Source: a virus
Lineage: Duplodnaviria > Heunggongvirae > Uroviricota > Caudoviricetes
IMG/VR virus record: IMGVR_UViG_3300044618_002782
Location: 128,001 to 160,607 of that record
Length of the DNA: 32,607 bases
Strand: one strand, 5' to 3'
Position 1 is the first letter of the stretch, and the number at the start of each line of letters is the position of its first letter. The notes under the pieces are model-generated. The model did no database searches. It had not been told where the DNA came from and saw only the letters and a program-made list of their open reading frames with translations. The position numbers were made by a program, and so were the translations under genes. Below, in pieces: positions 5,603 through 25,479 of this stretch.

Positions 5603-6331
5603 ATGATACCATATACATATCTCATCAGATGGACCCAGCTAAACATTAGTTACTACGGCGTTAGATACGCTCAAGATTGCGACCCAGGTGATCTTTGGAA
5701 TCCATACAAAACCTCATCCAAATACGTAGCAGAATTTATTGCTCGATACGGCGAGCCTGACGTTATCCAGGTGCGTAAAACATTTACGGACGTTTCTGTT
5801 GCTCAAAACTGGGAGCATCGTGTATTGAAACGGGCAAGGGCAGTTAGTAGTGATAAATGGTTGAACAGAACGGATAACAAGTCTATTGCTCCGCTATATG
5901 GAGTAGACCATCCGCACTACGGTAAAAAAGGTGAAGCTCATCATTCCTACGGTAAACCAAATACAGGAGCCTCAAAGGCACAAACGCAAAAGTGGGCTAA
6001 TTTTGTTGGTCAGCATCCTTGGAGTGATCCAGAATTTATATCTCGTAATGTAGCAAGCAAAAGTGGTGATAATCATCATATGAAAAAAGCAGATGTAGCA
6101 GAGAAAATATCTGGTAAAAATAACTGGATATACCAAAAGCCTGGTGCGTTAGAAGCAAGAAGCAAACAGTTTATAGAAATGAACAAGGCTCGCAAAGGCA
6201 CGCACTACCGTAGGGTAGACTGTAAGTATTGTGGCAAAGATTACTCCTCTGTACAAATCAACCAGCACGAAAAGAGATGCGAAACGAATTTAGCCAGATT
6301 AGTAGCAAACACGAAACAATGTCGTGTATAA
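5603..6331 (+). CDS. Free-standing GIY-YIG (Seg-like) homing endonuclease with NUMOD3-like repeats and C-terminal zinc finger
   Basis: YTYLI-x7-YYGVR, conserved E (NWEHRVL) and N (WLN); repeats GVDHPHYGK/GEAHHSYGK/GDNHHMK; CKYC-x12-H-x3-C. Confidence 0.75.
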   Translation: MIPYTYLIRWTQLNISYYGVRYAQDCDPGDLWNPYKTSSKYVAEFIARYGEPDVIQVRKTFTDVSVAQNWEHRVLKRARAVSSDKWLNRTDNKSIAPLYGVDHPHYGKKGEAHHSYGKPNTGASKAQTQKWANFVGQHPWSDPEFISRNVASKSGDNHHMKKADVAEKISGKNNWIYQKPGALEARSKQFIEMNKARKGTHYRRVDCKYCGKDYSSVQINQHEKRCETNLARLVANTKQCRV

Positions 6332-21734: not shown

Positions 21735-21816
21735 GTGGCTAAAACAGTACATTTTGGTAGACCAGAAACCGCCCAAATGCTATACTAGTTTTACAGTAAC
21801 AAAACAGGAGCTCAAA
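21734..21816 (+). promoter_or_regulatory. Early expression cassette 1 (palindrome, sigma70-like promoter, SD leader)
   Basis: TAGACC 21758-21763, 17 nt, TGcTATACT (-10 at 21781-21786), AACAAAACAGGAGC. Confidence 0.8.
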
Positions 21817-22008
21817 ATGACCAAGCAAGAATTAGGCGAGTTAGCAATGGAAATCCTCAACACAGCGGATACCAGCGGTCCTGACACAGAAGACGGCGTT
21901 ATCACTGTAGATTCCGACCTGTTGTTTCGCTACTACATTATGCGTGGTGTGGCTAACAGCGAAGCTAAAAAAGAAAGCAAAAAATTGTCGCATAAAAACA
22001 ACAGTTAA
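21817..22008 (+). CDS. Small hypothetical early protein (63 aa)
   Basis: True start ATG 21817 behind AGGAG; the C-terminus SHKNNS is encoded by the next cassette. Confidence 0.7.
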   Translation: MTKQELGELAMEILNTADTSGPDTEDGVITVDSDLLFRYYIMRGVANSEAKKESKKLSHKNNS

Positions 22009-22074
22009 CAAGTGGTAGACCAGTAATTCACTACCAGCTATAATGTTTATACAGTAACAAAACAGGAGCTCAAA
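21986..22074 (+). promoter_or_regulatory. Early expression cassette 2
   Basis: TGTCGCATAAAAACAACA; TAGACC 22016-22021, 17 nt, TATAAT 22039-22044; 29 nt identical to the cassette 1 leader/start. Confidence 0.85.
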
Positions 22075-22260
22075 ATGAGCGCAATTCTTAGAAAAGACAT
22101 TGGACGTGAGATCCTAGAGACACTTAGGGAATCTGCCAGAGAAGCCCTTCCGGATGCTACAGAAGCAGAACGTGAAGAAAGCATAGCCAAATTCCTAGGT
22201 ATTATGAGTGATGTAATGTTTGCTGGTCCAGCAAAAACGTCGCATAAAAACAACACATAA
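22075..22260 (+). CDS. Small hypothetical early protein (61 aa)
   Basis: Strong SD; C-terminus SHKNNT encoded by the next cassette. Confidence 0.7.
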   Translation: MSAILRKDIGREILETLRESAREALPDATEAEREESIAKFLGIMSDVMFAGPAKTSHKNNT

Positions 22261-22325
22261 AAAGTGGTAGACCGGAAATACCCAAATTGCTATAATGTAT
22301 ATACGCTAACAAAACGGGGTAAAAC
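22238..22325 (+). promoter_or_regulatory. Early expression cassette 3
   Basis: CGTCGCATAAAAACAACA; TAGACC 22268-22273, 17 nt, TATAAT 22291-22296; leader AACAAAACGGGGT. Confidence 0.85.
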
Positions 22326-22661
22326 ATGTTAAATGATAAAGATCTCAATAACAAGTCCGCAGGTCGCTTCTCGTTTGCTGCCGCAAGAGACGCTAATCGT
22401 TATAGCGATGAATGCCGCATGACGTTTACCCCTAGTCAACGTGCCTATGCAGAAACATTTAGAGATCTGCTGACGTTGGCATACAGTGCAAACGAAGTGT
22501 TTATTAACTTCCGCAAAACTATTATTAGCATTAAGCTCACTAAGCCTCAAGTGCGAGACCGCAAAATTGTACGCGAGCTCGATGAGCTTTGTGCAGAACG
22601 CGGCTATGTAAAAGCTCGTAGCGAGCAGGGCTTGCTGTACAAAATCCCAAAAGTTGCATAA
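22326..22661 (+). CDS. Hypothetical early protein (111 aa)
   Basis: ORF between cassettes 3 and 4; its stop lies inside the next palindrome. Confidence 0.75.
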   Translation: MLNDKDLNNKSAGRFSFAAARDANRYSDECRMTFTPSQRAYAETFRDLLTLAYSANEVFINFRKTIISIKLTKPQVRDRKIVRELDELCAERGYVKARSEQGLLYKIPKVA

Positions 22662-22740
22662 AAACAACACATAAAAAGTGGTAGACCGGTAATACAATAT
22701 CGGCTATAATGTACTTACACTAACAAAACAGGAGCAGTAA
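22652..22740 (+). promoter_or_regulatory. Early expression cassette 4
   Basis: AGTTGCATAAAAACAACA; TAGACC 22682-22687, 17 nt, TATAAT 22705-22710; 34 nt identical to cassette 3. Confidence 0.85.
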
Positions 22741-23760
22741 ATGACCCAAGTCCTAATCCGCAACGGCGTTTATCGCAATAAACCCGTACACAACGAAGTG
22801 TTTGAATTGGTCAAAGACTATACAGCCGGTGCTAAGGGTGGTTTTGTCACCATCGACAGCAAAGGATTTTTTGGACCCGAGTTTGGTATTGCTCGTGTCA
22901 AGGTAGACAGCATGGAAGACATTGAAATCCAAGGTGCTACAGCCACCACAGCGTCTGCTGTGAAAGCAGCACCTGTTCCAGAGGCTAGTGACGAAGAAGT
23001 CATGGCTCGTATCCGTGAGCGTTTTGAAATCCTAGACGAAATGACCAAGGCCGCTGTGGCCGGTGATGTCCGTGCCATGATTGTGTCGGGTCCTCCGGGC
23101 GTGGGCAAGAGCTACGGCGTGGAGAAAATTATCGAAGCTGCCTGTTTGTTTGACAAGATCTCTGGCAAGCGACTACGTGCTGAAGTGGTCAAAGGTTCAG
23201 CCACAGCATTGGGTCTGTACCAAACACTATACAAGTACAGCGACAAAAACTGTGTGCTGGTGTTTGATGACTGCGACAGCATCCTGTTGGATGACGTGGC
23301 CTTGAACTTGTTGAAAGGTGCCCTGGACTCAGGCAAGAAGCGTAAGATTTCGTGGTTGTCGGACAGCTCAGTGCTACGCCGTGAAGGTGTGCCAGACAGC
23401 TTCAACTTCAACGGTACAGTGATTTTTATTACTAATTTGAAGTTTGACAAGATGAAAAGCCAGAAACTGCGTGATCACTTGGATGCACTGCAATCACGCT
23501 GCCACTACTTGGACTTGACCTTGGACACCATGCGTGACAAGATCTTGCGTATCAAACAGATTGCCAACGACGGTCAGTTGTTTGAAGAATACGAGTTTGA
23601 CGCAGAAACGCAAGAGGAGATCATTGACTTCATGACGCACAACGCTACTCGCTTCCGTGAGATGAGCTTGCGTATGGCAATCAAGATTGCTGACTTGCGT
23701 AAGAGCTTTCCGCTCAAATGGAAGGCCATGACCGAAGTCACTTGTATGAAAGCAGCCTAA
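22741..23760 (+). CDS. AAA+ ATPase with an extra N-terminal beta domain
   Basis: GPPGVGKS Walker A, VFDDCD Walker B, IFITN sensor 1, ALQSR arginine finger. Confidence 0.85.
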   Translation: MTQVLIRNGVYRNKPVHNEVFELVKDYTAGAKGGFVTIDSKGFFGPEFGIARVKVDSMEDIEIQGATATTASAVKAAPVPEASDEEVMARIRERFEILDEMTKAAVAGDVRAMIVSGPPGVGKSYGVEKIIEAACLFDKISGKRLRAEVVKGSATALGLYQTLYKYSDKNCVLVFDDCDSILLDDVALNLLKGALDSGKKRKISWLSDSSVLRREGVPDSFNFNGTVIFITNLKFDKMKSQKLRDHLDALQSRCHYLDLTLDTMRDKILRIKQIANDGQLFEEYEFDAETQEEIIDFMTHNATRFREMSLRMAIKIADLRKSFPLKWKAMTEVTCMKAA

Positions 23761-23771
23761 GGAGTTAAACA

Positions 23772-23978
23772 ATGAACCAATCAATTCGCGAACTTGCTGA
23801 ACAGGCCGGATATGAAGCAGACTTGTTTGGTGTAGGGCATTGGAATATGCCCGAGTGTCAAAAGTTCGTTGAGTTGATTGTTCGGGAATGTGGCAACATT
23901 GCTTTTGAACATTGGGCTCTGACACACAGCAACTCACCTCAAGAGGCCATACTCAAACATTTCGGAGTTGAAGCATGA
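23772..23978 (+). CDS. Small protein, MNxxIRELAEQAG repeat family, unit 1
   Basis: SD GGAG; shares three blocks with the next ORF. Confidence 0.75.
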   Translation: MNQSIRELAEQAGYEADLFGVGHWNMPECQKFVELIVRECGNIAFEHWALTHSNSPQEAILKHFGVEA

Positions 23979-24211
23979 ATGAACGAATTCGAGAACTTGC
24001 TGAACAGGCTGGATTACCAAAGTATATCACACGAGAGATCGGTCCAACAATAATTCAAAAGTTTGCCGAATTATTGATCAAGGAATGTTATGAAAGTTGC
24101 CGAAGTCAGGTACTTGATAAAGAAACTGCTGACACAAACGAACTAACATATAATGATGCTGTCAGTGATTGTGCAATTGGGTTATTACAACATTTTGAGA
24201 TGATGGAATGA
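23975..24211 (+). CDS. Small protein, MNERIRELAEQAG repeat family, unit 2
   Basis: ATGA overlap; MNERIRELAEQAG / QKFAELLIKEC / LQHF blocks. Confidence 0.75.
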   Translation: MNERIRELAEQAGLPKYITREIGPTIIQKFAELLIKECYESCRSQVLDKETADTNELTYNDAVSDCAIGLLQHFEMME

Positions 24212-24261
24212 ACGAACGAATTCGAGAATTGGCAGATAGATTTTACCCGGATTGTCTGTAG
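24208..24261 (+). pseudogene. 17-codon stub of a third repeat-family unit (MNERIRELADRFYPDCL*)
   Basis: ATGA overlap and first 9 codons match unit 2, then it runs into a hairpin and TAG. Confidence 0.65.
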
Positions 24262-24323
24262 TAAACGCTCCTGTTTAGACAATCTGTTTGGGGCATCGTA
24301 GCAATACGGTGCCTCTTTTTTTT
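24233..24323 (+). ncRNA. Candidate 3'-UTR structured RNA displaying an anti-Shine-Dalgarno loop
   Basis: GATTGTC-tgtag-TAAAC-GCTCCT-GTTTA-GACAATC (24250-24284) followed by a terminator; GCTCCTGTTT is the reverse complement of cassette leader AAACAGGAGC. Confidence 0.4.
24290..24323 (+). terminator. Rho-independent terminator of the early operon
   Basis: GGGGCATCGTA-GCAA-TACGGTGCCTC (GNRA loop, two G-U pairs) followed by T8. Confidence 0.88.
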
Positions 24324-24350
24324 GACTTCTGTCTGCAAATAGTGTACTAT
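24322..24350 (+). promoter_or_regulatory. Sigma70-like promoter, probably leaderless
   Basis: TTGACT 24322-24327, 17 nt, TACTAT 24345-24350, ATG 7 nt later. Confidence 0.55.
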
Positions 24351-24357
24351 ATACATT

Positions 24358-25479
24358 ATGACCTTTTGCTATTCGCCATGGACCAATATTGACATCGACC
24401 CTAAGGGTAATATAGCTCCGTGCTGTAAGTTTCAGTTTGATAAAAATACAGAAAAATTTAACATTCAAACTCATACTATAAAACAATATTCAAAAAGCGA
24501 TTTTCTTCAACAAATTCGCAGCGAATTTATGCAGGGAAATTGGCCTGCTGGCTGTGAACGTTGTAAAATTGAAGAACAAAATAATATTGAAAGCAAACGA
24601 AACCTAGATAACACACGCTGGAAAGACCATTACAACCGATACAATTTAGACAGTAAAGAATTTATAACAGCAAGTATTGCATTTGGTAATACTTGCAATC
24701 TAAAATGCATAATATGCAGTCCGTATGCATCTAGTAAATGGCAAAAAGAGTACAAAACCATCTACGGAATTGATATTGCTCATAATAAGTTTTATAAAAA
24801 TAATTTTGTAAAAGATCTTGTCGAAGCTGCGCCAAATCTGATACATCTTGACATACCCGGAGGAGAACCATTGCTCAGTGGAGTGCCAGAACAAAAAGAA
24901 TTGCTTGGTTATTATATTCAATCTGGGAAGTCTCAAAATATGTCATTGCACTATACAACTAATGCCACTATATTTCCAGATCCGGAATGGTGGGAGATTT
25001 GGAGTTGTTTTCAAAATGTAGACATACAATTAAGTATAGATGCCATCGGTGATCGATACGAATATGTAAGATATCCAGCCAATTGGAAAACAACACTCCA
25101 CAATGTGGAACAATACATGCAGCGACAAAAAGATAACATCCAGTTAAGTATAAGTCATAGTGTAAGTGCCTATAATATATATTATCTTGACGAATTTTTT
25201 GAATGGTGCTATACTATGGGATTGCCGCGTCCTTGGATAGGGAGAGTACATACTCCTGCACATATGAGACCAAGTGTTTGGCATGATACTGCCCGCCAAG
25301 CCATTATAGATAAATTGTCACAAAGTCAATATTCGGATGTACATGCTTGGAAAGAGATGATTGCTAATTCTGATGATAGTGCATTATTTGAAACCTTTAA
25401 AAAATATCTACTACAACATGACCAATATCGTGGCACAAGTTTTGCTAAAGTATTTCCGGAACTAAACAAATACCTATGA
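24358..25479 (+). CDS. Radical SAM protein with N-terminal Twitch/SPASM-like domain (paralog of 632-1780)
   Basis: CYSPW...GNIAPCC...CERC, CNLKCIIC, GGEPLL. Confidence 0.9.
   Translation: MTFCYSPWTNIDIDPKGNIAPCCKFQFDKNTEKFNIQTHTIKQYSKSDFLQQIRSEFMQGNWPAGCERCKIEEQNNIESKRNLDNTRWKDHYNRYNLDSKEFITASIAFGNTCNLKCIICSPYASSKWQKEYKTIYGIDIAHNKFYKNNFVKDLVEAAPNLIHLDIPGGEPLLSGVPEQKELLGYYIQSGKSQNMSLHYTTNATIFPDPEWWEIWSCFQNVDIQLSIDAIGDRYEYVRYPANWKTTLHNVEQYMQRQKDNIQLSISHSVSAYNIYYLDEFFEWCYTMGLPRPWIGRVHTPAHMRPSVWHDTARQAIIDKLSQSQYSDVHAWKEMIANSDDSALFETFKKYLLQHDQYRGTSFAKVFPELNKYL

Follow-up and report, generated by a model that had tools for sequence, protein, structure and literature searches.

The full-length hok message is silenced by 5′–3′ pairing, with its 3′ end folded back. 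Folding also sequesters the Shine–Dalgarno (SD) sequence of the type I toxin mRNA aapA3 (PMC6733600). In Staphylococcus aureus, an anti-SD motif in the 3′ UTR of the icaR mRNA pairs with the SD of that same mRNA and blocks initiation; this case concerns a single gene in one bacterial species, with a complementary region of ~40 nt that is an RNase III substrate, and the study (Ruiz de los Mozos 2013) left open whether the pairing occurs in cis or in trans (PMC3868564). OppZ and CarZ of Vibrio cholerae are autoregulatory 3′-UTR sRNAs that act in trans and need RNase E processing and Hfq (Hoyos 2020, PMC7398697). T4 RegB is a protein nuclease that acts on the GGAG SDs of early mRNAs and has many targets (review PMC3014915). 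PAK_P3 sRNA1 and sRNA2 and lambda PreS are phage-encoded small RNAs proposed or shown to base-pair; PAK_P3 sRNA2 matches tRNA TpsiC loops, not RBSs (PMC4933390), and the lambda PreS preprint appears to concern host replication (bioRxiv 10.1101/2024.10.31.621285).

The element lies at the 3′ end of an early phage operon. It is like icaR in that a 3′-UTR motif complements the SD of its own transcription unit, with no terminator or promoter between the two in the window (the whole stretch of DNA analysed, which is the final 32.6 kb of a 160.6-kb linear virus record) or in any but one of its relatives. It differs from icaR in having a seed of 9–11 nt in a hairpin loop, in spanning an operon with changing cargo and in showing at least ten co-varying sequence pairs, with repression being predicted from sequence; a long (~40-nt) duplex of the icaR/RNase III type was not found, the phage duplex being about 7–11 bp in all loci. 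With OppZ and CarZ it shares an operon 3′ end that finishes at an intrinsic terminator and is complementary to the RBS of its own operon, whereas RNase E processing and Hfq are features of OppZ/CarZ that the phage element may or may not share. No Hfq was found in the record, which is 46% complete (CheckV). As in the type I toxin mRNAs, folding would keep an SD closed, but no antitoxin RNA, activating 3′ trimming or small toxin was identified here, and the predicted target is a 339-aa AAA+ ATPase whose translation is expected to be open during transcription. The element thus resembles icaR or OppZ/CarZ but fits neither class fully.

Since the 160.6-kb record is less than half complete, its source is probably a T4-like jumbo phage; the relatives are uncultured IMG/VR and metagenome contigs, from giant lake phages. 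The features of the locus are collected in Table 1. The fourth early cassette begins with the AAA+ ATPase gene, which is followed by two short paralogous ORFs, a 17-codon stub and an intrinsic terminator. Its promoter P4 is present in nearly all relatives, and the transcript start is inferred to be near 22717. The ATPase has ~31% identity to T4-group proteins, one of which is annotated nrdC.10; a fold search returned matches to generic AAA+ proteins only. Its N-terminal domain is small and beta-rich; it yielded a low-confidence model and had no match in the Atlas.

Table 1. Coordinates of the early cassettes, the AAA+ transcript and its 3′ element in the window.
Feature	Position	Strand	Basis or remark
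Array of four sigma70-type early cassettes	21758–24323	+	Promoter scan
Leader 1, 10-mer AAACAGGAGC	21802–21811	+	Complementary to seed; predicted incidental target in window lineage
Leader 2, 10-mer AAACAGGAGC	22060–22069	+	Complementary to seed; predicted incidental target in window lineage
Leader 3, AAACGGGG	22312–22319	+	Weak partial match to seed
Sigma70-type early promoter P4 of AAA+ transcript	22682–22710	+	Promoter scan
Leader 4, extended RBS of AAA+ gene, AAACAGGAGC	22726–22735	+	Predicted conserved target
AAA+ ATPase, 339 aa, phrog_1250, homolog of T4 NrdC.10	22741–23760	+	PHROG E=2.6e-84
17-codon stub ORF, MNERIRELA-type start	24208–24261	+	Stop 24259–24261, just past 5′ stem arm
Presenting hairpin	24248–24286	+	RNAfold; conserved in relatives
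Putative anti-RBS seed GCTCCTGTTT	24267–24276	+	Exact complement of AAA leader; loop side of hairpin
Intrinsic terminator closing early operon	24290–24323	+	Terminator scan
Next sigma70-type promoter and leaderless radical SAM gene start	24322–24360	+	Outside the element

Several other features of the array were observed. An A/C-rich repeat block ends each early cassette and abuts the next promoter (21985–22015, 22235–22267 and 22650–22681); these blocks encode the last codons of the cassette ORFs, are probably a homology unit for cassette shuffling and could possibly serve as an upstream promoter element. Tandem short paralogs starting with MN(E/Q)xIRELA occupy 23772–24261, the third being the stub, left by a deletion, and relatives differ in how many of these genes separate the AAA gene from the element. 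In G000 (6050–6110), a 152-aa gene that matches no PHROG is preceded by a promoter-leader nearly the same as that of the AAA gene, but its operon carries no anti-RBS tail. The U-tract of the terminator provides the −35 box (TTGACT) of the next, leaderless promoter (24316–24360), and this junction is kept in most relatives although the downstream gene differs.

From the predicted fold, the hairpin consists of an 11-bp stem (24248–24258/24276–24286) and a 17-nt loop, in which the TAAAC/GTTTA segment forms a weak inner helix. The seed is the exact reverse complement of AAACAGGAGC in leaders 1, 2 and 4 (from 21802, 22060 and 22726), and the hairpin, seed and leader positions of the original prediction were all confirmed. 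The seed core has an unpaired probability of 0.87 in the window (mean 0.70 over loci), opening the full 10-nt seed costs ~3.2 kcal/mol, and the element region folds better than shuffled sequence (z=−2.95). In the whole 160.6-kb record, AAACAGGAGC occurs five times on the plus strand, always in early-promoter leaders (two beyond the window, at genome positions 6094 and 11071), and once on the minus strand, this copy being the element itself. No start codon lies downstream of the motif on the minus strand, again as predicted, which rules out a reverse RBS. No comparable element was found at the other terminators of the same genome, and Rfam holds no matching family, the best match being BjrC68 at 21.3 bits (gathering threshold 39), with a score driven by the terminator. 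The stub-ORF stop that the original prediction placed in the 5′ arm and the alternative stem that it proposed (24233–24242/24281–24290) both exist in the window, but neither is conserved. Since the full-length ORF of relatives ends at a stop equivalent to 24237–24239, immediately before the hairpin, the two look like products of a lineage-specific local deletion, and a switch built on them was rejected for lack of conservation.

To follow the element across relatives, 253 AAA loci were gathered, of which 133 were unique and had a leader and a terminator. The element was found ahead of the terminator that closes the AAA+ operon in about 129 of these 133; after checking, three loci were without it (L060, L216 and L217) and one was truncated. 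In a blind test, the 60 nt upstream of the first terminator, chosen without reference to any leader, were compared with the AAA leader of the same locus. The longest perfect complement averaged 8.4 nt over the 133 loci and reached at least 8 nt in 74% of them, against 6.3 nt with the tails of other phages, 4.75 nt with shuffled and 4.4 nt with same-sense sequence. None of 20,000 permutations, which ignore kinship, reached the observed mean, and most of the loci that failed proved to be terminator miscalls.

The seed and the AAA leader change together in at least ten matched sequence pairs: leaders of the types AAACAGGAGC, AGGAGCTAGA, GGAGCCAACC, GGGCTAGAAA, GGGCTAGTAA, GGAGTTAAA, TGGAGCAACA, GGAGCGAAA, TGGAGTC and ACACGGA are each accompanied by their own complementary seed. 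Matched changes fall inside and beside the SD, at positions +1 (A-U/G-C), +3 (C-G/U-A), +4 (four pair types) and +6 (A-U/G-C/U-A). Kinship was taken into account by using tree-independent pairs on an AAA tree (FastTree). In register, leader and seed differed in the same way in 43 such pairs versus 3, and the off-register sums were 1/6, 5/10, 17/10 and 7/16, where the register was set by the best match and the summed counts overlap and are not independent; two single columns were significant on their own (p=0.03 and p=0.008). Between lineages, the shared segment shifts across the SD from its 5′ to its 3′ side. L108, L180 and L237 have wobble substitutions inside the duplex; the asymmetry of G-U versus A-C changes is mixed. 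In a few loci (L020, L011, L028 and L045) the pairing has drifted to 6–7 bp. The caution in the original prediction that a 10-nt match could be chance can be set aside, chance being excluded by the occurrence of the element in nearly all unique relatives, the blind test and the tree-independent pairs. We regard it as very probable that the seed pairs with the AAA RBS.

The seed keeps its position, 15–34 nt upstream of the terminator across loci. In 93 loci (class I) it lies on the 3′ side of a hairpin loop and in 19 (class II) it is single-stranded directly before the hairpin; its core is more unpaired than the other G/C residues of the tail in 111 of 112 loci. Stem sequences in the same place are wholly different between lineages. 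Among 12 close relatives, the 11-bp stem is 100% paired, with one compensatory U-A/C-G change and two A-U/G-U changes. As the latter keep pairing on the plus strand only, the functional RNA would be the plus strand.

These observations bear directly on readings that involve no RNA duplex at all. The inverted copy lies about 50 bp upstream of the next promoter, as a DNA operator might, and, read on the minus strand, the sequence gives a hairpin whose loop is AGGAGC, as in a CsrA/RsmA-binding RNA. However, the strand-specific G-U stem pairs, the sliding of the shared segment across the SD and the wobble substitutions all argue against such readings, and these, together with chance, are most improbable. 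A minus-strand CsrA/RsmA-type sRNA was rejected as a candidate, since the GGA is also lost in seven loci and the element is single copy. What the comparison identifies is a conserved RNA element of the plus strand; its exposed seed changes in step with an early RBS, and its tail very probably blocks the AAA RBS.

We also checked which leaders the seed follows. The AAA leader matched its own seed over 9.0 nt and foreign seeds over 6.3 nt, whereas the other early-promoter leaders (80 leaders, 51 loci) gave 5.5 and 5.4 nt, respectively (p=0.74), and the AAA leader match exceeded that of the other early leader in 77 of 80 comparisons. The co-variation expected from the original prediction was therefore found for the AAA leader and not for the other early leaders, and its feedback on a whole early RBS family is not supported. 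Among close relatives, the AAA leader is invariant and the other leaders vary, only 6 of 20 other cassette leaders matching the seed fully; in the window phage's own record, 4 of about 11 do so. The 10-mer AAACAGGAGC is a consensus common among cassettes: phages that have a different seed also carry it, in 13 of their 83 early leaders. Leaders 1 and 2 match because the seed of the window lineage covers the SD 5′ side, where this consensus lies. No terminator separates P1 from the element, so leader 1 would be in cis on read-through transcripts, but it is not conserved as a target among relatives. For leader 3, pairing is formally possible as first proposed, but weak: its duplex with the seed was −8.7 kcal/mol, or −2.4 net, against −10.2 net for the AAA leader. 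Five large relatives contain few copies of the 9-mer target; in G001, 16 of the 18 inspected copies were not early leaders, almost all being coding. The conserved target, as judged from these comparisons, is the leader of the AAA (NrdC.10-family) gene only, not the early RBS family.

Two further patterns were seen among the loci. The AAA leaders of L214 and L234 contain an additional GGAGT ahead of the segment that pairs with the seed; it may be a second SD, left partly free of the duplex. In L087 (~6700) and L095 (~5900), the 17-nt loop-plus-arm pattern occurs in unrelated context, without stem or terminator, probably by chance.

The original prediction was that an anti-SD RNA silences both the early family and AGGAG-led mRNAs of the host, with leaderless middle and late genes escaping. 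This would be an RNA-based early-to-late switch, and RegB would be its functional analogue. In its favour, the full 10-mer is found in five early leaders of the genome (two of which belong to other transcripts), several cassettes match wherever the seed of a lineage covers the SD 5′ side, leaderless late and sigma70-type starts exist, and RegB was not found in the incomplete record. The escape of late genes did not hold as a rule, however. By crude gene calling, 23 of 165 genes are leaderless (18 late and 5 sigma70-type) and 83 have an SD, these counts being rough, and the late structural genes for the major head protein (major capsid), tail tube and head-tail adaptor have GGAG leaders, which form seed duplexes of −7.8, −9.5 and −10.6 kcal/mol, respectively. 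A generic host AGGAG gives −7.7 kcal/mol, so that a seed silencing the host would hit these late genes as well. Moreover, seven seeds have changed CTCC to GCCC, following their own leader and losing the canonical SD match, which makes silencing of host mRNAs unlikely, and host-SD targeting was rejected as a selected function. With the other early leaders untracked, the 10-mer a common consensus and the 9-mer target rare in large relatives, the switch is largely refuted as a conserved function and as a reading highly improbable. A RegB-like general early shut-off was likewise rejected; both RegB and the element concern the GGAG SDs of early phage genes, but RegB is a protein with many targets and the element is an RNA that tracks one leader.

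The seed/AAA leader duplex (−16.8 kcal/mol) is predicted to be much more stable than that of the leader with an E. coli-type 16S tail (−6.6 kcal/mol), and we consider it likely that the pairing represses AAA translation. In the mechanism that we propose, the loop-exposed 3′-UTR seed would base-pair with the extended SD of the first gene of the operon, most likely on the same mRNA. Before the tail is synthesized, about 1.6 kb later, ribosomes would load freely on the AAA leader; once it is made, a duplex of 9–11 bp would outcompete the 16S anti-SD and shut initiation, so that each transcript would yield a short burst of ATPase, while the downstream cargo genes, with their own RBSs, would be spared from targeting. 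Such a 5′–3′ fold-back, icaR-like and most likely in cis, capping AAA translation, is our best reading, and we hold it with a little better than even confidence.

Whether the repression acts within one molecule is itself a question on which we lean, by a small degree, towards cis. With a single exception, each locus has the seed and the AAA leader on the same predicted transcript, and the AAA message looks monocistronic in 31 of 112 loci. The cargo between the AAA gene and the element turns over constantly (55–3269 nt), while the element remains part of the AAA transcript; a promoter scan of the loci detected no separate promoter near it, and the other leaders bear no trace of the seed, all of which favours cis. 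Folding of whole transcripts gave leader/tail pairing with P=1.0, but foreign tails also gave 0.1–1.0, and this analysis is non-discriminating. The example of OppZ counts against the cis reading, since its geometry is the same and it requires RNase E processing, not intramolecular pairing (PMC7398697).

The main rival is accordingly that the ~85-nt tail (hairpin and terminator) is cut by RNase E and represses the AAA leader in trans as a 3′-UTR sRNA, a negative autoregulation as with OppZ and CarZ, which we judge unlikely but worth serious consideration. The co-variation data fit it equally, the tail has a Rho-independent terminator and a U tail at its end, and presentation of the seed in a loop is well suited to starting a pairing between two molecules. 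In 59 of 94 loci (63%, versus 41% in coding background) the hairpin has an RNWUU-like stretch ahead of it, but an enrichment this small is what any AU-rich UTR would show. A diffusing anti-GGAG RNA should also have marked the other early leaders, by matching or avoidance, and none of this was seen; nor would it account for the element staying on the AAA transcript despite the cargo turnover. L243 carries an insertion just after the AAA stop, with a terminator-like hairpin and a new sigma70 promoter, and an intact seed is retained 983 nt downstream, past the inserted terminator, as a trans-acting RNA would allow. Relatives at 97% identity do not have this insertion, which may be too recent to tell cis from trans. 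In the window lineage, the targets of a trans-acting sRNA would also include the four further leaders that carry the 10-mer. It is conceivable, although distinctly unlikely, that in window-type lineages the slide of the seed onto the consensus AAACAGGAGC has turned the brake into a stable trans sRNA repressing several early cassettes; if true, such a multi-cassette repressor would give a lytic jumbo phage its own RNA counterpart to T4 RegB.

The sign of the effect is not told by co-variation, and the pairing could be real with a main job other than repression, either closing the mRNA ends so that the 5′ end or the SD is shielded from nucleases, or setting one state of a switch, which a protein, or ribosomes that terminate at the last stop codon, would open. 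The class II seeds fit this view, 16 of 19 lying at most ~18 nt from the last stop (mostly 5–10 nt) and thus inside the footprint of a terminating ribosome, whereas most class I seeds lie 15–45 nt or further from that codon. In every case, however, the SD core is within the duplex, and known SD-covering duplexes block initiation (PMC3868564; PMC6733600). We therefore rate a role other than repression as very unlikely, and retain the fold-back on the AAA RBS as the preferred reading.

Among cultured phages with the same ATPase, the element is absent from T4, KARL-1, BX-1, R10Z and E9.1, and T4 nrdC.10 itself has no anti-RBS tail. In Pseudomonas phage PA5oct (MK797984.1, L289:700-740 and 1888-1925), which has an nrdC.10 homolog of 50% identity, the nrdC.10 RBS and a stretch 20 nt past the stop can form 8 perfect and 2 wobble pairs, which is not significant alone; the same is seen in MIJ3 (L296). 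This stretch forms a hairpin arm with an RsmA-like GGA loop, with no terminator after it, and an element in PA5oct is doubtful. No description of the element was found in the searched literature, whose coverage is incomplete, and the searches returned no pairing of a 3′ UTR with its own SD for a lytic phage.

To our knowledge, very few bacterial examples of long-range pairing between a 3′ UTR and its own SD have been tested. Here, a whole phage lineage appears to keep such a pairing through repeated compensatory changes, even in the SD core, and the natural seed/leader pairs offer a ready orthogonal set for the question of cis versus trans. This conservation would imply tight selection on the amount or timing of a widespread NrdC.10-family ATPase, and a brake on this ATPase may provide a handle on a T4-like early function. 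Taken together, these results make the element very probably a single-gene brake and not a general early-to-late switch as had been proposed.
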